From a phage, in the sequence record PZ871095.1: a stretch of 44,927 bases of DNA, one strand, 5' to 3'. Of this stretch, positions 5,012-25,246 are shown one piece after another; the stretch's first letter is position 1; each line of letters begins with the position of its first letter. A program made the position numbers and the translations under genes. The notes below the pieces were generated by a model, which was given only the letters and a program-made list of their open reading frames with translations, made no database searches and had not been told where the DNA came from.

Positions 5012-5025
5012 TGGCCCCTTTTTGT
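5001..5025. terminator. hairpin terminator between convergent genes (GGGGCC-gtaat-GGCCCC + TTTTTG)
   Basis: Perfect 6-bp GC stem followed by a T-run on the plus strand; lies between the plus-strand spanin stop and the minus-strand gene ending at 5025. Confidence 0.6.
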
Positions 5026-5789
5026 TAGCGCGGAATGCCGCAAATCTCGTTGAGTGTTTTCACATCCAGCGCCACTGCCGTGGATTTTGGCTTGTCCGGG
5101 TACGGGATGAATTGCTCGACTTCAGGCCATGCCTTAATCAGCTTCTTGTCAGTATTGTGCAGGTCCAGCACACCGGTAACGGTCAACTTGAATGCGTCAT
5201 ACTTCGCACGCAATTCGCGGCGGGCCTGGTCGTTACGGTCCAGGCGCTTACAGAAGTCATGGTCCGCAGGGTAATCTGCGCGACCGCGAGGGAGATATAT
5301 CGGCAGCGCTTTCCCGTCCTCGTCCACTTCGCACACTGACGCGAGCATAACTGTCTCGAACCCCGGAACGATATCGCCGAGATCAGGCGCGAGCTTATTC
5401 ATATATTTCTCTTCCCAGTATCCGCGATGTACGCGGTATCGGCGACCGTCACCGCTCAAGGACAAGGTGCGAACATTTCCGCCTGCGTTGATTTCGAAAG
5501 TGGCGTCGTAAACGCTGCCGATACCTTTCGGGCGGTCGGTGTTATAACTATATGTCGCCTTGTTGGTGTATACACAGACGCCGTACATCTGCGACTGGTC
5601 GTCGCGAATTGCCTTGATATGCTCGCGGAGCGCTGCGAACGTGCGAATGCCTTCCGGCATACAGTCCAGCGTTATTGCGTACGCCAGATCGCGTGAGTCC
5701 ATCATGATTTGTTTGGCTTCGGTTGCGATTTCGTGGTCGCGCAGGATGTTAGATAGGATCTGATTTTTAATGTCTTTTGTCAGTCTCAT
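5025..5789 (-). CDS. hypothetical protein (minus-strand gene inside the head module)
   Basis: 254-aa ORF with ATG start and GAGGA ribosome-binding site; opposite strand to the flanking structural genes; no motif recognised. Confidence 0.7.
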   Translation of the reverse strand: MRLTKDIKNQILSNILRDHEIATEAKQIMMDSRDLAYAITLDCMPEGIRTFAALREHIKAIRDDQSQMYGVCVYTNKATYSYNTDRPKGIGSVYDATFEINAGGNVRTLSLSGDGRRYRVHRGYWEEKYMNKLAPDLGDIVPGFETVMLASVCEVDEDGKALPIYLPRGRADYPADHDFCKRLDRNDQARRELRAKYDAFKLTVTGVLDLHNTDKKLIKAWPEVEQFIPYPDKPKSTAVALDVKTLNEICGIPR

Positions 5790-16937: not shown

Positions 16938-17545
16938 CAACGTTTAAATTGTACGGCGTTTTGGGACGTCGATTCGGTAAAGTTCATAAGCTGGACTGCT
17001 TCACTCCGGGCGAGGGTATTACCGGCCTGTGCGTGAAGTTACCCGGCTTACAGGACTTTCTAATGTCAGCCCACCTGGACAATATGATGTTCAAGGTGCG
17101 CAAAGGCGACCACACGATGACCGGCTATGATGAGCTGGGTGAGTTCCACGGCAACCGCGTCGTCACCATCGCGCCGGTTATGACGGGCGCAAAAAGAGGG
17201 TTGGGACAATTGCTGGCGGGTGTCGCGATCGTAGTGGCGTCGTTCTATACGGGCGGACTTGCTACTGCCGCTTTCGGGGCTTCGGCTGCAACCGCTGCCG
17301 CTATCGGGACGGCGACGTTTTCGTTCGGGATGTCGATGGCGCTGGGTGGCGTTATGCAATTGCTGTCGCCACAACCGAAAGGATTGCAGACAAGGCAGGA
17401 CGTGGATAACAAGGCGTCGTATGCGTTCGGCGGCCCCGTAAACACTACCGCGCAAGGCACGGCTCTTGGTGTATTATGGGGCGAGCGTGAGATCGGCGGC
17501 GCTATTATTTCAGCCGGAATCGTAACCGAGGACTTGAACGAATGA
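16928..17545 (+). CDS. tail assembly protein (lambda I-like)
   Basis: 205 aa overlapping the K-like gene; glycine/alanine-rich hydrophobic C-terminal half; precedes the J-like gene. Confidence 0.65.
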   Translation: MAMTTFKLYGVLGRRFGKVHKLDCFTPGEGITGLCVKLPGLQDFLMSAHLDNMMFKVRKGDHTMTGYDELGEFHGNRVVTIAPVMTGAKRGLGQLLAGVAIVVASFYTGGLATAAFGASAATAAAIGTATFSFGMSMALGGVMQLLSPQPKGLQTRQDVDNKASYAFGGPVNTTAQGTALGVLWGEREIGGAIISAGIVTEDLNE

Positions 17546-20500
17546 CGATTATCTACGACGTCACAGGGCATAAAGGCGGCGGCGGAAAACAGCACACCCC
17601 ACAGGAGACGCCAGATAGCCTGCATTCGCTGGCTAAAATCCGCATCTTGCTTGCGCTGGGGGAAGGGGAATTCGAAAGTATTACCAGCGCCAGCGAATTG
17701 CGGCAGCGTGTTTACCTGGATGGAACGCCGATCCAGAACGCTGACTTGTCCGAAAACTTCCCTGGCGCGCGTGTGGAGTTCCGCCCCGGCACACAGCACC
17801 AGGATGTGATCCACGGATTTTCAGCGGTGGAAAGTGAGCAATCTGTCGGCGTAAAACTGGAAAACGGTACGCCGTGGGTACGCCAGATTAACGATACCAG
17901 TCTGGACGCCGTTCGCATTCGCATCGGAATTCCGGCCCTGTACACTAACGAAGATAATGGCGACCTGGTTGGCGGACGCATTGACTATAAGATCGTTGTG
18001 TATACGGATAACGCCGACCCGCGTGAGTTCAGATTCTCCGCCGTTGGTAAAACAATGTCGCTGTATGAGCGCGACCACCGCATCGAATTACCGCCGAACG
18101 TGAATACCGGCTGGCGCGTGGAGGTGCACCGCATAACGGCAGACTCCACATCGGCGAAAGTGGTTAATGATATCCGGGTGCAGTCCATCACTGAGATTAT
18201 TGACGCCCGCCTGCGTTACCCGCTAACCGCGCTGTTGTTTGTGGAGTTCGACGCCAAAGCGTTCCAGAACATCCCGCGCGTGTCCATCAAGTGCAAAGGT
18301 CGCAAAGTTCTAATACCGAACAACTACGACCCGATCAATCATACCTATTCCGGGGACTGGGACGGCACGTTTAAACGCGCATGGACGGATAACCCTGCGT
18401 GGCACTGGTACGATATTTGTATTACTGAGCGCTTCGGCCTCGGTCGGCGTATCAAACCGCAAATGCTAAACCGATACGCGCTCTACCAGATTGCGCAGCG
18501 CTGCGATCAGTTGGTCAGCGACGGCAACGGTGGTCGAGAAATCCGCTTTAAGAATGATATGTACATTCAGTCACAGACGGATGCCTGGACCGTGCTTAAG
18601 GATTTAGCCGCCATCTTTGCCGGTATGACCTGGTGGGGCAACCAGATGTTGAATATCGTCAGTGACCAGCCGGTCGCAGCGGTATCGCACACCATCACCA
18701 ACGCCTCGGTCATTGATGGGCGATTCGACTACGCATCTGGCAGCCAGAAAACTCGCTATTCCACATTCGCGGTAGCATACGGCAACCCGAAGAACCACTA
18801 TGAAGACGCCATTGCTACGGGGCAGCGTGTCGAACTGGTACGCCGCCATAAGATCAACCGTCTTGATATAACGGCGATCGGCTGTACGCGCGAGTCAGAA
18901 GCGCAACGCCGCGGGCACTGGGCGCTAATCTCAAACCAGCTTGACCAGCAAGTTAGTTTTAAGGTTGGCATGGAGGGGTTATTCTTTATCCCCGGTAGCG
19001 TAGTCGCGATCGCAGATACTAATATTTCTGGCGGATTCGAGACTCGTGGCGGTCGCCTGTTGTCGGACCCCGGAACGCGTACCGTGCTGAACACGGACAG
19101 CGAAATCACGTTCCGCCCTGGCGATAAGTTCATGGTGCGCACCGATAGCGGTAATGTGGAGACTCGCGAGATCGCCAACGTCAACGGCAACAAGGTAACT
19201 CTAAAAACCGCACTGGATGCCGACCCGATTCCGGACCAGCCGTTTTGCGTTGATGGCGACGATATCCAGTTGCAGAAGTTCCGCATCACCGACCTGGAAT
19301 ATGACGACTCTACCAGCACTTTTTCAGTGCGCGGGATCGAGTACAACGATAGCAAATACGATGCCGTTGATAATGGCGCTCGTCTTGACCCAGGCATCTT
19401 TACGCAAGTGCCTGACGGCGTAATGAAGGGGCCGGAGTCCGTGACCATCACCCCGTCGCAGATTTCATCGCAAGGCCAGCTAATCACCAACGTGGATATT
19501 GTTTTCCCGCCGGTGAAGGATGCCGTTGTATATGAAATCCAGTGGCGGCGTACCAGCCTGCAGAATATGGAAATCCAGTGGGGTAACGACTGGGTGAACA
19601 TTCCCCGCACGGCATCGAACGGTGCGCACATCCCGAACGTGTTTTCCGGAAACTATCAGGCGCGCGTTCGCGCAATCGGTATGGGCGAAATTTCATCCCC
19701 GTGGGTGTCGTCTGCCATCACGCCGATCGAAGGTCGTCTCGGTGGGCTTAACGCGCCTATCATCACAAACGCTATTCCGGGCCTCCACCAAATTTTGTGG
19801 AAGTGGAACCACAACAACGCCGCGACGGATATCTCTTACACCGAGCTTGAAGTGCGCAAGCGGGGTGAAACGGAATGGAAGTTCTTGACCAACGTCCCAT
19901 ATCCGGGGTCGGACTATGCGCAAACGTCGCTGGAGTTCGGGATCTACCAGCAGTTGCGCGCCCGCGTAGCGGATAAAATCGGCAACCTGTCGGACTGGTC
20001 CGCCCCGTTTGAAGGCCAGGTGAGTGACAAAGTTGACGAGTACATGAAGGGGTTGGACGACGAGTTCTTGACTTCCGAGGACGGTAAACGCTTCCAGGAA
20101 GCGATCGACACCATGCCGCAAGGCATTTATGAAGCCATGCTCACAGACGCGCAGCAATTGTTTAACGCCCGCGCCGAGTACCAGGGGATTTACGCAGAAA
20201 TCAAGGTGGCGTATAACGTGGCTGCGGATGCCCACAAGGCGGTAGCGCAACTTGAGACGTTGATCGGCACGCGCCTTGACGATGCGGAAGCGGCGATCCA
20301 CACGTTGCAGACCGCGCAAAGCACGCACGAACAAGCGTTCGCCCAGTACCAACAAACTGTTGCCGCTAAGTTCGGGGAGCAGGAAGCTGCCATCCAGCAG
20401 GTACAAACGGCAACGGCAGACGTAGCGGGCGCGCTGGCGGAGTACAAGACCCAAGTAGCGGCGCAGTTCGGGCAGCAGTCCGCAGCTATCGAGCAGAAGA

Positions 20501-20961
20501 TGACGTCTTCGTTTAACCATACTGGCGGTAGTGCCACATACAGCCTTAAGGCTGGCGTGACGTATAACGGGACTTACTATGATGCCGGTATGCAGCTTTC
20601 AGTTGTGGCGGAAGGTGGCGCGGTTAAATCCCGCATCGCGTTCAAGGCGGACCAGTTCTACATCATGCACCCGTCGAATGGGTCGCTTTCGTCCGCGTTT
20701 ATCGTCGACGGCGGGCAGGTGTACATCGACACGGCGCGCATCAAGAACGCGTCCATCAACTTCGGGCAGATCACAGACACGCTGCAATCGAATAACTACG
20801 ACGGCAGCACGCGCGGATGGCGCTTAGGTAAGGATGGAACGTTTATTAACCTGGGGACCGGAAGCGGTGGTGGTACAAAGCTGACCAACACCAACTACAG
20901 CGTTAAAGACGCGAACGGTGTTTTACGCGTGCAAATTGGCGAGCTTACTGGTCGCTGGTAG
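17542..20961 (+). CDS. host specificity / central tail fiber protein (lambda J-like)
   Basis: 1139 aa, largest tail-tip ORF; ATG overlaps the I-like stop (GAATGA); A/Q-rich repeated helical segment near the C-terminus. Confidence 0.85.
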   Translation: MTIIYDVTGHKGGGGKQHTPQETPDSLHSLAKIRILLALGEGEFESITSASELRQRVYLDGTPIQNADLSENFPGARVEFRPGTQHQDVIHGFSAVESEQSVGVKLENGTPWVRQINDTSLDAVRIRIGIPALYTNEDNGDLVGGRIDYKIVVYTDNADPREFRFSAVGKTMSLYERDHRIELPPNVNTGWRVEVHRITADSTSAKVVNDIRVQSITEIIDARLRYPLTALLFVEFDAKAFQNIPRVSIKCKGRKVLIPNNYDPINHTYSGDWDGTFKRAWTDNPAWHWYDICITERFGLGRRIKPQMLNRYALYQIAQRCDQLVSDGNGGREIRFKNDMYIQSQTDAWTVLKDLAAIFAGMTWWGNQMLNIVSDQPVAAVSHTITNASVIDGRFDYASGSQKTRYSTFAVAYGNPKNHYEDAIATGQRVELVRRHKINRLDITAIGCTRESEAQRRGHWALISNQLDQQVSFKVGMEGLFFIPGSVVAIADTNISGGFETRGGRLLSDPGTRTVLNTDSEITFRPGDKFMVRTDSGNVETREIANVNGNKVTLKTALDADPIPDQPFCVDGDDIQLQKFRITDLEYDDSTSTFSVRGIEYNDSKYDAVDNGARLDPGIFTQVPDGVMKGPESVTITPSQISSQGQLITNVDIVFPPVKDAVVYEIQWRRTSLQNMEIQWGNDWVNIPRTASNGAHIPNVFSGNYQARVRAIGMGEISSPWVSSAITPIEGRLGGLNAPIITNAIPGLHQILWKWNHNNAATDISYTELEVRKRGETEWKFLTNVPYPGSDYAQTSLEFGIYQQLRARVADKIGNLSDWSAPFEGQVSDKVDEYMKGLDDEFLTSEDGKRFQEAIDTMPQGIYEAMLTDAQQLFNARAEYQGIYAEIKVAYNVAADAHKAVAQLETLIGTRLDDAEAAIHTLQTAQSTHEQAFAQYQQTVAAKFGEQEAAIQQVQTATADVAGALAEYKTQVAAQFGQQSAAIEQKMTSSFNHTGGSATYSLKAGVTYNGTYYDAGMQLSVVAEGGAVKSRIAFKADQFYIMHPSNGSLSSAFIVDGGQVYIDTARIKNASINFGQITDTLQSNNYDGSTRGWRLGKDGTFINLGTGSGGGTKLTNTNYSVKDANGVLRVQIGELTGRW

Positions 20962-20997: not shown

Positions 20998-21300
20998 ATG
21001 GCATTCGGTATCGCAACGTGGGACGCGCAAGGACGCCCCAACAACTACGGCATTAAACCGGTAAGCGTGATCGGAAGGATTCATCTTGCGGAAGGACAAA
21101 AATCAGGCGCATGGTCATTCCCGGTACCGGCGGGGATGAAGGTCGGATATGTGGTCGCCCTGGATAAAGGCGCGGTCGGGCCGGGACGCAGAATAACCGC
21201 CAGCGGGAACACTATCACGGTTTCCGCGGCAAGTGCGGTAGGTGGCGGGGTTTACTCCGCATCTGAATGTGACGTTATTGTTTTTGTGGAGCGAGCATAA
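20998..21300 (+). CDS. hypothetical protein (tail-associated by position)
   Basis: 100 aa, ATG with GAGG ribosome-binding site, between the J-like gene and the fiber locus. Confidence 0.55.
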   Translation: MAFGIATWDAQGRPNNYGIKPVSVIGRIHLAEGQKSGAWSFPVPAGMKVGYVVALDKGAVGPGRRITASGNTITVSAASAVGGGVYSASECDVIVFVERA

Positions 21301-21974
21301 TGGCTAATTACGGCGCGCTGATTGACTTACCAAACGGCAACCCGTTTATCACGCCAGAATCGACGCCGTTTTGTCTATTCCGCCGTGTGGTTGTTGGGTC
21401 TTCGGCTAACGGCACTGCGCAGTCGGCGGCTGCCGATATTAATTTGGGGGGTGACTACCCTGCAATAGCGTTTGTGAAAACTACGCACACCGCCCAGCCG
21501 ACCGTCGTAGGGTCTTCTCGCGTTGGTAATGTGGTGAAGGTGAGCGCCAGCAATCCATTTGGGCAAGGATTCACGATGACAGCATACATCTTTGCCATAT
21601 TCCCACAGACCCTTCCGCGGTGGGGCTTCGCTATTTGGGATAAGACGGGGAGGCTAGTGCTGACGAACGAGAGCCGGGTACTAAGCGATTTAGTTACCGT
21701 CGGATCGCCAGGCGCTAACGGGGGAATTAACATTGACCAGACGCTAAACGGCAGCTACGCCGTCGCTCCGGGCATATTGGGGTCTACGCTGATCCGGTTT
21801 TTTGTGCAGGGCCAGCCACAGGTAATATCGGTAACGGCGTACACGGGGGCCAGATTTGATGGGTCGCGAACGCGTATATCGGCAGCGTCGTCGGGGAACG
21901 CCACGGGGGATGTGGTGGGGTATACTAACAACGGCAACGCGATTATGGCGATTAACACTGCCAATTATGATTGA
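21300..21974 (+). CDS. hypothetical protein (tail-associated by position)
   Basis: 224 aa, ATG overlapping the upstream stop (TAATG); Gly/Ser/Thr/Asn-rich, fiber-like composition. Confidence 0.6.
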   Translation: MANYGALIDLPNGNPFITPESTPFCLFRRVVVGSSANGTAQSAAADINLGGDYPAIAFVKTTHTAQPTVVGSSRVGNVVKVSASNPFGQGFTMTAYIFAIFPQTLPRWGFAIWDKTGRLVLTNESRVLSDLVTVGSPGANGGINIDQTLNGSYAVAPGILGSTLIRFFVQGQPQVISVTAYTGARFDGSRTRISAASSGNATGDVVGYTNNGNAIMAINTANYD

Positions 21975-21977
21975 AGA

Positions 21978-22000
21978 AGGCCCCGAAAGGGGCCTATTTG
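21978..22000. terminator. hairpin terminator between convergent genes (AGGCCCC-gaaa-GGGGCCT)
   Basis: 7-bp GC stem between the plus-strand gene ending 21974 and the minus-strand gene ending 21994; T-runs are weak on both strands. Confidence 0.5.
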
Positions 22001-22212
22001 CAGGTTGTGCTTTTGAAATGGTCAACTGACACATACTGGAAGTTAAACGGGTATCCCGCCCTGAGCATTTTGTGGCCGCTAAAATCCGCGACCCCAAACA
22101 CGGGGACTGAGTAATCCATGCCGCTATTCTGGTACGTCGCGTCGCAGACTTTAGCTGGCATGTTGGCACAACCGGACAAAAGAACTGCACAAATCATAAT
22201 TAAAGTTTTCAT
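21994..22212 (-). CDS. small outer-membrane lipoprotein (Cor-like superinfection-exclusion candidate)
   Basis: 72 aa from ATG 22212 (AGGGGATGA ribosome-binding site); lipoprotein signal MKTLIMICAVLLSGC with lipobox LLSGC; sole minus-strand gene among tail genes. Confidence 0.55.
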   Translation of the reverse strand: MKTLIMICAVLLSGCANMPAKVCDATYQNSGMDYSVPVFGVADFSGHKMLRAGYPFNFQYVSVDHFKSTTCK

Positions 22213-22292
22213 GGTATCATCCCCTATATTTGGTTGAGTTTTAGTATTACACCGCTCAACCAGGATTGCAACCAATTTATGAGGATTTAGCT

Positions 22293-24047
22293 ATGGCGGC
22301 GGGTACTCTATCCGTAACGAATAACAGCAAGGCGGTTGTTGGGGTTGGCACGACGTTTACCGCGCTGAAGGCTGGCGACTTCCTGTCGCTGGTAGTGGGG
22401 CAAGTCCCTTACACTGTCGCTATTGCATCCGTAGAAAGTGACACCGCGCTTACGCTGGTGCTGCCGTTCGATGGCCCAACGGCAACCGGCCTCGCATGGG
22501 ATAGCGTGGCGCGCGATACAATGTCGCTTGCGACTATGGGCGTAACCGTCCAGGCGCAGAAAGCATTGCGCTTGCTGATTGCAGATGAGAACAACTGGCG
22601 CGCAATCTTCGGCGACGATGAAGAAATCACAGTGACGTTACCTAACGGGCAGGTTATGCAGGGCATGTCATGGGGCTATCTGTCACAGTTGATGAAACAG
22701 ATCGACCCCGTTGAGATGCGCAACCTGCAACAACAAGCCGCCGCATCTGAAGCAGCCGCGCAAGGATTTCGTAACGAGGCTGAAGGATTTCGAGACGGCG
22801 CGCAAGGATACCGCAACGAGGCGCTCCAATTCCGCACCGACTGCGAAGGGCTGAAGAACGAAACGACAAACCTTCGCAACGATGCGCTCCAATTCCGCAC
22901 CGACTGCGAAGGGCTGAAGAACGAAACGACAAACCTTCGCAACGATGCTAACACAGCTAAGACTGGCGCGGAGACGGCACGCGATCAGGCGCAGAACATC
23001 GCCGACGGTATGGACCCTGGACAGTATATGCAGAAATCTGCAAACCTGAGCGATGTAGTGGATAAGGCGCAAGGCCGCGCGAATATGGGTCTTGGCACTA
23101 CAGATGCCGTGGAGTTTGGTGGGGCCACCCTCAATGGTCACACCCGCATCAATGGCTCGTTGCTGTTGGGGCGTAACCAGTGGGATGGGTCTAGCTGGGG
23201 GAGCTACGGACTACAATCGTCATTCGTCATCATGTCGCCGGATGGAGACTCCGAGCCGGGATTTTACATCAGGCCGCTATCGGGTGCGCCTGGGTACGCA
23301 ACGTCGTTCACCTATAATCTCGCGATTAATCTTTTCAGCACCAGTGCTCGCATCAAGGCGGTTAACTTCTCATCCAGCACTACGACTATGGGATATAACG
23401 AGATGTGGTCACGTGCATGTTTCCAGGGGCAGCCATACGAGGCCCAGGCGGGGGTTGAGAACTACCAATCGCTTGTCGCAGGTACTTGCGGTACGGTATC
23501 ACACGGATTTTACGGTGGCGTTGCGTTCGGCATGATGACTGCTGGCGGGGATGGGTGGCCTGTCGGTCAGATCTCGATCGGCACGCAGGACAGAGCCGCT
23601 GATGGCACTATCGGATTACAAATGCACTTCCGTTTCCATTCATCCGGTAACATTACGTATACGGGGCCGGCGGGGTCGGGGTCATTCCAGCAAATCCCGG
23701 CATCTGACCGCAACATTAAGCATGATATTAAAGACGATAAATCCAGCACAGCATACGATAACATTAGAGCCATTCGATTCCGTAATTTCGTATTTAATGA
23801 TGACGAGCAGGAGCGTATTCGTCGCGGGGTTATCGCACAGGAGCTTGAAGAAATCGACCCGCTTTATGTTAAGCACCGCGAATACCACAACATGGAGCTT
23901 AACGGGCCGAAGATTACTCGACTGGAGCTTGACACGACGCCGCTGTTACTGGACACAATGCGAGCGTTGCAGGATACGATTAAGCAGGTGGAGGAGTTGA
24001 AGGCCGAGATCGCAGCTATGAAACAGGTGGAGGAGTTGAAGAAATAA
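22293..24047 (+). CDS. tail fiber protein with C-terminal intramolecular chaperone (S74 peptidase-like) domain
   Basis: 584 aa from ATG 22293 (GAGGA ribosome-binding site); SDRNIKHDIKD... segment characteristic of autoproteolytic fiber chaperone domains; internal exact tandem repeat. Confidence 0.8.
   Translation: MAAGTLSVTNNSKAVVGVGTTFTALKAGDFLSLVVGQVPYTVAIASVESDTALTLVLPFDGPTATGLAWDSVARDTMSLATMGVTVQAQKALRLLIADENNWRAIFGDDEEITVTLPNGQVMQGMSWGYLSQLMKQIDPVEMRNLQQQAAASEAAAQGFRNEAEGFRDGAQGYRNEALQFRTDCEGLKNETTNLRNDALQFRTDCEGLKNETTNLRNDANTAKTGAETARDQAQNIADGMDPGQYMQKSANLSDVVDKAQGRANMGLGTTDAVEFGGATLNGHTRINGSLLLGRNQWDGSSWGSYGLQSSFVIMSPDGDSEPGFYIRPLSGAPGYATSFTYNLAINLFSTSARIKAVNFSSSTTTMGYNEMWSRACFQGQPYEAQAGVENYQSLVAGTCGTVSHGFYGGVAFGMMTAGGDGWPVGQISIGTQDRAADGTIGLQMHFRFHSSGNITYTGPAGSGSFQQIPASDRNIKHDIKDDKSSTAYDNIRAIRFRNFVFNDDEQERIRRGVIAQELEEIDPLYVKHREYHNMELNGPKITRLELDTTPLLLDTMRALQDTIKQVEELKAEIAAMKQVEELKK
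22821..22946. repeat. exact 63-bp tandem duplication (2 copies) inside the tail fiber gene
   Basis: gcgctccaattccgcaccgactgcgaagggctgaagaacgaaacgacaaaccttcgcaacgat appears twice back to back, encoding ALQFRTDCEGLKNETTNLRND twice. Confidence 0.9.
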
Positions 24048-24053
24048 TGAGAA

Positions 24054-24076
24054 GGGGCCATACGGCCCCTTTTTTA
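24054..24076. terminator. hairpin terminator between convergent genes (GGGGCC-atac-GGCCCC + TTTTTT)
   Basis: Perfect GC stem with T6 on the plus strand; the rightward fiber gene and the leftward early block converge here. Confidence 0.65.
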
Positions 24077-24649
24077 GTTTGAGTTTTCCCAGTCCATTTT
24101 GCGCCGCACCAGCGGGCTTTCGTAATACTCCTTTCCCTCCACTTCCACCAAAGGCCAGTCATTAACAATCACGTATGGCTCCGCGATATCCTCGATCACG
24201 CCGTGCGCACTATGTTGCCCGAAATCTACGCTAACCAGGATAACACCGGCAACGCGACGGGTAAGATACTCGCGAGCGCAACGCGCCTCTACCAGTCCGC
24301 GACGGATGCCGCTGGTGGCCTTAACTTCGTAGGTCCATACGGCATCGATCACATGCTCACGGAAGTCTGGCCCGGACTTCACCTTGCGCTTGCCGACCAT
24401 GATAATATCGCCGCGGTCAATGGTGTTGGCGCTAAACAGGCCGGTACGCATTAGCAAACCTTGCGGGATACAGCTACGCCCGCCCGCCTGCCCTTCGAGG
24501 TACATGCCTGCAAACATTTCGCCCAGCACACCGACGAGTCTGCTTTGCTTGCACGCGTCGGACTTTAGGCGCCACTGGTCAAACTCGATGCTTGCGATCA
24601 TTGCCGCCAGGTGGAATTGTTTACCGGATATTTCATATTCGCCGTACAT
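24074..24649 (-). CDS. hypothetical protein, possible PD-(D/E)xK-type nuclease
   Basis: 191 aa, ATG with AAGGAGG ribosome-binding site; D...EVK arrangement (IDAVWTYEVKAT) compatible with a restriction-endonuclease-like fold; weak call. Confidence 0.5.
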   Translation of the reverse strand: MYGEYEISGKQFHLAAMIASIEFDQWRLKSDACKQSRLVGVLGEMFAGMYLEGQAGGRSCIPQGLLMRTGLFSANTIDRGDIIMVGKRKVKSGPDFREHVIDAVWTYEVKATSGIRRGLVEARCAREYLTRRVAGVILVSVDFGQHSAHGVIEDIAEPYVIVNDWPLVEVEGKEYYESPLVRRKMDWENSN

Positions 24650-24691: not shown

Positions 24692-25246
24692 TTATTTCAG
24701 TGCGCCAGTCACCAGTGTTTTTTCCATGTTGCGGAAGTCTTCCGGCGTCATGAGGATTTTGGACCCGTCTTCGCCAGTTAGAACGACCATAGGCTGGACG
24801 TCTTGATCTGCAATGCCGAAATTGGCGGCTTTGACAGTCTTTCCGAACGAGGCCACAGTCTCCTCGGCAACGCGCATCGCACTGTTATACGCATTAATCT
24901 CGCCATCAAGACGCACGGACAGACCTTTGAGGCTTTCAAACTGTTCTGCCGTTGTATCGACCTGAATCTCGTCATGCACGGTCATGTAAGACTCGCCCAG
25001 CAATGCGGCATACGCTACCAGGTCGACGATATTGTCTTCCTGGTGCTTACGGTGCTGGCGCACCAGCTTCAGGCAAATCAGGAAGGTCCAGGCTTCTTGC
25101 TCGGTTAGGTCGCGACCGGTAAGAGCGTTAAACACGGCGGCGATTTGTTTAGCGCTGCGTTCTTCTTTCGCGTTGTCATAGCCGTTTGCTTTCCCGCGCT
25201 GCTCCATAGTGGTGGCGGCGTTTTTGCAGTATTCGTATGCTTTCAC
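24692..25246 (-). CDS. hypothetical protein
   Basis: 184 aa ORF with GTG start in the leftward block; no motif recognised. Confidence 0.5.
   Translation of the reverse strand: MKAYEYCKNAATTMEQRGKANGYDNAKEERSAKQIAAVFNALTGRDLTEQEAWTFLICLKLVRQHRKHQEDNIVDLVAYAALLGESYMTVHDEIQVDTTAEQFESLKGLSVRLDGEINAYNSAMRVAEETVASFGKTVKAANFGIADQDVQPMVVLTGEDGSKILMTPEDFRNMEKTLVTGALK

Follow-up and report, generated by a model that had tools for sequence, protein, structure and literature searches.

The Cor proteins of phages T1, phi80, N15, HK022 and mEp167, covered by the family models NF047972 and PHROG 1119, share a lipobox, two further cysteines and a RAGYPF motif, and the phages that carry them use FhuA as receptor. 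In T1, cor is inverted relative to the tail genes, with a terminator in between; in temperate phages, it lies on the strand of the tail tip gene J and is a moron expressed from the prophage. Phage T5 encodes Llp (8A60, chain B), another small lipoprotein targeting FhuA, in which a disulfide between Cys11 and Cys58 (PMC9586334) ties the ends of the mature protein together. The llp gene sits beside the receptor-binding module, next to oad (the pb5 gene), and is transcribed from back-to-back promoters, divergently from the structural genes. Van den Berg et al. found that Llp binds the periplasmic face and the plug of FhuA and folds EL7/EL8 over the phage-binding site, and they proposed that Cor works in the same way (PMC9586334). 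Rtp45/SE-Oeko, from small siphoviruses that target LptD (9RPS), occupies the same slot downstream of J, including in other Dhillonviruses, and is likewise a small periplasm-facing lipoprotein that alters the outer loops of its receptor, but its mature sequence is unrelated, its disulfide is a different one and its target is LptDE.

The gene studied here lies in sequence record PZ871095.1. The whole stretch of DNA that we analysed (44,927 nt), hereafter the window, is the nearly complete genome of a Dhillonvirus, an HK578/SO1-like small siphovirus and virulent coliphage. Judged by its sequence, the product of this gene is a Cor-family lipoprotein, of which the family, the position and the phage genus were all known already; since Cor is annotated in many database records and treated in the literature, the finding itself is not new. 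The reading that we favour, with a probability of about 0.9, is that it acts as a Cor-family blocker of FhuA. It shares the lipobox, the two cysteines and the RAGYPF motif with the Cor proteins mentioned above, but lacks the three-residue ‘KQxP’ insertion of lambdoid Cor. Like cor of T1 and unlike that of the temperate phages, the gene runs opposite to the tail genes, and the group to which its carrier belongs is treated as virulent in the literature. The same gene, with the same neighbours and the same hairpin, is present in phages GeorgBuechner (Bas16; bas16_0027, 100% identity) and Gluttony (gp59, 96%), from which we see no difference of substance.

Genomic setting of cor

Over the first 25 kb of the window, 110 phage records match along at least 80% of the length with 90-95% identity, the best match being vB_EcoD_Over9000 (93.7%); identity to Bas16 is 92.4% overall. 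The tail block around cor contains the following features:

17542..20961, plus strand: gene for a J-like tail tip protein, the upstream neighbour of the cassette (product 98.2% identical to Bas16 J and 34-38% to J of T1, phi80 and N15).
20998..21300, plus strand: 100-aa gene of the FhuA-type receptor cassette, homologue of phi80 gp22, N15 gp22 and T1 ST32 (PHROG 557).
21300..21974, plus strand: 224-aa gene of the FhuA-type receptor cassette, homologue of phi80 gp23, N15 gp23 and T1 ST31 (PHROG 425, E 8.7e-70), convergent with cor.
21978..21995, both strands: hairpin AGGCCCC-GAAA-GGGGCCT, G+C-rich and with a stem of 7 bp, located where the 224-aa gene and cor converge.
21994..22212, minus strand: cor, encoding 72 aa and ending in a TAG stop (open reading frame list, PHROG 1119, NF047972 and dN/dS).
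22293..24047, plus strand: lateral tail fiber gene (PHROG 1980, E 6.5e-138; tail fiber in the annotation of relatives), divergent from cor.

The order J, 100-aa gene, 224-aa gene and cor is that of T1, phi80 and N15, whose two companion proteins are 52-73% identical to those of the window. The 100-aa protein shows 70% identity to its homologue in phi80, 73% in N15, 54% in T1 and 100% in Bas16, and the corresponding values for the 224-aa protein are 57%, 64%, 52% and 99.1%. The original prediction had placed cor between the tail-tip and tail-fiber genes. This holds on the tail fiber side, where the 5′ end of cor faces an 80-nt intergenic region common to the divergent fiber gene, but on the other side the receptor-binding cassette of 100-aa and 224-aa genes separates cor from the tail-tip gene. 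The further statement that cor is the only minus-strand gene of the tail region agrees with the annotation of Gluttony and Bas16, in which it is the sole gene of opposite polarity from the first tail gene through the lateral tail fiber. Another lone opposite-strand gene, encoding 254 aa (5025..5789, minus strand), is found in the head-morphogenesis block and has bas16_0007, a ‘hypothetical protein’, as its counterpart.

Next to cor, the lateral tail fiber gene has no DNA match to Bas16 over its distal two-thirds (22790-23980), and any relative covers only 58-75% of the region 21000-24100. Both reflect the usual swapping of a variable tail-fiber tip. Past this gene follow replication and early genes on the minus strand. 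The 184-aa product of 24692-25246 (minus strand) matches PHROG 9871, a family of unknown function, and has weaker hits to families that carry the label ‘phosphofructokinase’ (PHROG 474, E 1e-19), which seems unlikely because the protein is so small.

The hairpin lies 4 nt past the stop codon of the 224-aa gene, with a stem that overlaps the cor stop codon, TAG. Its folding energy is -16 to -18 kcal/mol, with z scores of -3.3 and -4.1 on the two strands against shuffled controls, and all seven pairs are kept in the eight relatives compared (8/8), in which the loop occurs in three versions. One pair switches from G-C to A-U (A-T) together with a TAG/TAA change of the cor stop codon; as window and Bas16 are identical at the hairpin, this counts as a single compensatory event and as modest evidence. 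The hairpin predicted to bracket the gene between convergent genes is thus real and conserved, although it flanks the 3′ end of cor only. The consensus promoter and terminator scan did not list this hairpin, which fails the U-tract rule of the scan and has weak flanking U tracts. T1 has an annotated terminator in the corresponding place, between its cor and ST31, and the hairpin of the window is probably a two-way terminator.

Family assignment and lipoprotein signal

The gene had been predicted to be Cor-like, and this is borne out by two family models, by full-length alignment and by its position in the cassette. PHROG 1119, ‘Cor superinfection exclusion protein’, matches the full length of the protein (residues 1-72) with an E value of 1.5e-27, and the NCBIfam equivalog NF047972, ‘phage exclusion lipoprotein Cor’, scores 58.4 bits over residues 2-71, above its curated cutoff of 31, so that the comparison with Cor family profiles that had been proposed as a check turned out positive. 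In BLASTP, identity to Cor is 40-49% for T1 (49%), phi80 (40%) and N15 (42%), compared with which the protein of the window is 3-6 residues shorter, and 31% for SSU5. A full-length alignment with Cor of T1, phi80 and N15 shows the lipobox cysteine, two more invariant cysteines and the RAGYPF motif in common. The Bas16 gene is identical to cor of the window in both DNA and protein, and the Gluttony homologue (gp59, YP_009291476.1) bears the RefSeq name ‘Cor superinfection exclusion protein’. A Pfam scan of the protein returned no family at E <= 1, but Pfam contains no Cor model at all, so this null result is not evidence against the assignment.

The extent of the family depended on the method of search: a word-indexed search for homologues first gave just 6 close relatives, and only a profile built from six divergent Cor proteins brought the number to 209 homologues with E <= 0.001, many of them named ‘phage exclusion lipoprotein Cor’ by NCBI. 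Two records labelled as Campylobacter phages, MG065648.1 (‘Campylobacter phage A144’) and MG065640.1 (‘A14b’), contain a Dhillonvirus-type and a T1-type cor, with 89% and 53% identity, respectively. They are probably coliphage sequences that were mislabelled or carried along in Campylobacter phage preparations.

The complete product of cor is MKTLIMICAVLLSGCANMPAKVCDATYQNSGMDYSVPVFGVADFSGHKMLRAGYPFNFQYVSVDHFKSTTCK. Its N-terminus, MKTLIMICAVLLSGC, has a lysine at position 2, a hydrophobic core at residues 3-12 (mean Kyte-Doolittle value 3.0) and a lipobox (L12-S13-G14-C15) followed by alanine, which confirms the 72-aa minus-strand reading frame (21994..22212) with a clear lipoprotein signal that had been described. 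The relevant parts of the gene are:

22171..22212, minus strand: signal peptide, residues 1-14, MKTLIMICAVLLSG, with a predicted signal peptidase II cut before Cys15 (hydrophobic core and regular-expression match to the lipobox).
22168..22179, minus strand: lipobox L-S-G-C, with Cys15 (22168..22170) as predicted acylated N-terminus, invariant in 63 homologues.
22144..22146, minus strand: codon of Cys23, the first of two invariant cysteines in the mature protein (invariant in both alignments).
22000..22002, minus strand: codon of Cys71, the second invariant cysteine (invariant in both alignments).

The annotation of phi80 cor presents the same signal-peptide layout. At the predicted cleavage junction, where MKTLIMICAVLLSG is followed by CA, a regular-expression and hydropathy check finds a residue other than Asp, namely Ala, at position +2. 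Under the established +2 sorting rule for lipoproteins, this alanine predicts Lol-dependent sorting to the outer membrane. The mature domain comprises 58 residues. C15, C23, G53 and C71 do not vary across 63 diverse homologues; at A52, P55 and F56 of the RAGYPF motif, conservation is at least 90%. Cys23 and Cys71 probably form a disulfide.

The receptor module

Between positions 20883 and 22259, the window differs from Bas16 by 7 mismatches in 1377 nt (99.5% DNA identity), with dense mismatches on either side. This pattern points to one recently shared block that extends from the end of J through both companion genes and the hairpin to cor and its -10 region. By its sequence, the block looks like a recently exchanged receptor module, and it fits the reported horizontal exchange of receptor loci. 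The terminal receptor of Bas16 is FhuA, as established by experiment (PMC8594841 supplement). According to Maffei et al., small siphoviruses exchange the locus downstream of J as a module that exists in alleles for FhuA, BtuB, YncD, LptD and LamB, and their terminal receptor can be predicted from the allele present; for Bas15, Bas16 and Bas17, FhuA is listed (PMC8594841). The Dhillonviruses JLBYU37 and JLBYU60, whose Cor proteins are 92% and 88% identical to that of the window, depend on FhuA by experiment (PMC10373560). A 2026 paper lists Cor together with both companion genes in ten BASEL Drexlerviridae/Dhillonvirus phages, all of them FhuA users (PMC13164509). From the likeness to Bas16, JLBYU37 and JLBYU60, the terminal receptor of the carrier phage is predicted to be FhuA, and the Cor cassette would allow this prediction to be made from sequence alone.

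Since the module downstream of J is swapped among alleles for different receptors, and since BtuB-using phages also carry Cor-like proteins (PMC13164509), the lipoprotein might instead block another outer-membrane receptor, for example BtuB or LptD. We consider this very improbable: the companions belong to the FhuA-type allele, with 52-73% identity to those of T1, phi80 and N15, the cassette as a whole shares 99.5% identity with its counterpart in the FhuA-using Bas16, and the LptD-type Rtp45 (9RPS, 9rps_D) matches our protein over the signal peptide only (query positions 3-24, E 1.1), with no similarity beyond it.

An equally slim chance can be given to a three-part membrane exclusion system made of Cor and the 100-aa and 224-aa proteins. 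Cloned cor of phi80 or mEp167 reportedly confers exclusion on its own (Uc-Mass, 2004), which counts against a need for partners. [quoted passage not shown] However, both companions lack signal peptides and hydrophobic segments, their best hydropathy over 19 residues being 1.18 and 1.23, respectively, and their membrane names look like legacy errors. Both are encoded in the late tail operon, on the strand opposite to cor. The literature regards the locus as the FhuA receptor-binding module, and two comparative studies assign it to the receptor-binding protein and accessory proteins (PMC8594841; 10.64898/2026.04.02.716166).

Coding evidence and start site

In pairwise comparisons among eight Dhillonviruses, the dN/dS of cor is 0.04-0.2, with dS reaching 0.5-1.05, and the cor frame is the only one of the six that is free of stop codons in all eight. 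cor is a genuine gene under purifying selection and not a chance reading frame. A spurious frame or a pseudogene, antisense within an intergenic spacer, might be suspected from the length of only 72 aa, from the lack of a Pfam model and from the mere label ‘hypothetical protein’ of the identical Bas16 gene, but this reading is already refuted by the substitution pattern, with low dN/dS while synonymous sites are near saturation; the sole frame open in eight relatives, the 209 homologues at E <= 0.001 and the conservation of both the ATG and the ribosome-binding site speak against it as well. The latter site is located as follows:

22217..22224, minus strand: ribosome-binding site GGGGATGA, 4 nt before the ATG; relatives keep GG(G/A)GATGA.

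A longer reading of 93 aa, starting from a TTG at 22275 as in the annotation of ZCEC12, was rejected: it would bury the signal peptide, and it is further disfavoured by the conserved ribosome-binding site at the ATG and by Cor of T1, phi80, N15 and SSU5, which begin at a methionine equivalent to this ATG. An overlapping minus-strand frame of 148 aa (21744..22190) was also discarded, as the same frame contains stop codons in the relatives.

A lysis-related outer-membrane lipoprotein, that is an Rz1-type o-spanin, would share the small size and the lipobox and could invoke a weak match to the Rz-like spanin family PHROG 456 (E 0.088, residues 3-21 only), but we give it virtually no weight, since this match is confined to the signal peptide, the mature part shows no richness in proline, a partner i-spanin gene is missing, the genome of Bas16 (92% identical) has its annotated i- and o-spanin at another place, and the full-length Cor match is better by 26 orders of magnitude.

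Predicted fold and comparison with Llp

An AlphaFold2 model of Cor, built from the alignment of 63 sequences, is an all-beta small barrel with a mean pLDDT of 82 and values above 90 for residues 21-70. In a structure search of the PDB, T5 Llp bound to FhuA (8a60_B) aligned with the lowest rmsd (2.8 A over 51 columns) and at the highest identity (24%), and its TMq and TMt (0.50 and 0.57) were the highest among the leading hits; its Foldseek E value of 0.077 ties it with unrelated Tudor/SH3-like barrels. The predicted model appears closest in shape to T5 Llp (8A60), although not significantly so. In BFVD, T5-type receptor-blocking lipoproteins, one of which is named ‘receptor-blocking protein’, occupy ranks 2, 3 and 6, below the family of Cor itself. 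The spacing of the two cysteines, at residues 9 and 57 of the mature protein, mirrors that of the Cys11-Cys58 disulfide of Llp. Both proteins have a cysteine pair near the mature ends, and the predicted beta-barrel resembles that of Llp at the non-significant level just given.

The sequences offer a different picture depending on whether the signal peptide is included. A search of PDB sequences with Cor as a single query found nothing, whereas the Cor family profile retrieved Llp with an E value of 6.6e-4, covering residues 1-43, and hhalign of Cor against Llp, with the signal peptide included, gave a probability of 91%. With an HMM of the mature part only, Llp scored 2.9 bits, and 61 of 2000 shuffles were as good. 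The sequence link between Cor and Llp rests largely on the signal peptide and, because the homology is not significant without it, we leave the protein out of the Llp family. The gene neighbourhood differs too: pb5, the receptor-binding partner of T5 Llp, has no homologue in the window, where the place of a pb5-type gene next to the lipoprotein gene is taken by gp22/gp23-type genes.

Proposed function and mechanism

From the family membership, the export and lipidation signals, the purifying selection, the linkage to the cassette and the predicted fold described above, we infer the function of the protein by homology with Cor of phi80, N15, mEp167 and T1. It would be an outer-membrane lipoprotein facing the periplasm, as predicted from its signal sequence, whose 58-residue mature domain, a small beta-barrel with a probable Cys23-Cys71 clamp, would bind FhuA, the terminal receptor of the phage itself. 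This TonB-dependent transporter would thereby become unusable for adsorption. The route is most likely the one solved for T5 Llp, in which case Cor would bind the periplasmic face and the plug of FhuA and the extracellular loops would fold over the phage-binding site. By analogy, we lean towards this Llp-like reverse allostery, with less confidence than towards FhuA blocking as such. An AF3 model of KanT1 Cor with FhuA, docked on the periplasmic side with an ipTM of 0.84 (PMC13164509), is consistent with this route; according to a recent preprint, the mechanism of Cor is not yet elucidated (10.64898/2026.03.26.714494). Our search of the literature found no exclusion or adsorption assay for any Dhillonvirus Cor, and no structure of a Cor-FhuA complex is known. 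Cor-mediated exclusion is also said to involve other outer-membrane proteins (Arguijo-Hernandez et al., 2018), and a simple one-to-one, Llp-like lock on FhuA may for this reason be incomplete.

Such a blocker would exclude other FhuA-dependent phages during infection and would spare the progeny wasteful adsorption to the debris of lysed cells. Infected cells, or cells expressing cor, would become resistant to T1, T5, phi80 and other FhuA-dependent phages, a property relevant to the design of phage cocktails and to the engineering of receptor specificity; for the rest, the identification matters little beyond correct annotation.

Candidate promoter, orientation and expression

Upstream of cor, inspection by eye reveals one putative promoter:

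22243..22271, minus strand: candidate sigma-70 promoter, with TTGCAA (22271..22266), a 17-nt spacer and TGT-AATACT (-10 at 22248..22243).

Its TTGCA, extended TG and AATACT elements are invariant in eight relatives, and the start site of cor transcription is predicted to lie near 22236. The consensus scan reported no promoter for cor, the candidate matching 4/6 positions in each hexamer (8/12), below threshold, and with this weak match it remains a candidate. Given these 8 of 12 positions and the failure of the hairpin under the U-tract rule, both elements were judged by conservation instead. In phi80 and N15, cor lies on the strand of J, and phi80 cor has its own annotated promoter. With a candidate promoter of its own and the shared two-way terminator hairpin, cor of the window can presumably be expressed independently of the tail genes.

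The inverted repeat GGTTGAG-N16-CTCAACC (22232..22261), unique in the window and unexpected by chance, was considered as an operator over the cor -10. We do not claim it as such, because one of its arms is broken, with no compensation, in six of seven relatives. A promoter-like sequence on the opposite strand, CGGACA-16-CATAAT (9/12; 22173-22200, plus strand), lies antisense inside the signal-peptide codons of cor and is directed at the tail fiber gene, for which it could serve as a promoter overlapping the start of cor; at this site, conservation is inseparable from coding constraint.

Lastly, the inverted orientation of cor in virulent phages could conceivably serve as a timing switch. A separate idea is that the receptor-binding genes, cor and the cor promoter travel together as one recently exchanged unit, which the island of 99.5% identity to Bas16 would then mean. 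We hold this reading to be rather unlikely. In the timing scenario, cor would fire early from its own promoter (22271..22243), and late tail transcription reaching the shared hairpin would then shut it down, through convergent interference or through promoter overlap, the candidate tail-fiber promoter (22173..22200) lying antisense within cor. If this were true, the blocking of receptors and the synthesis of tail fibers would never coincide.
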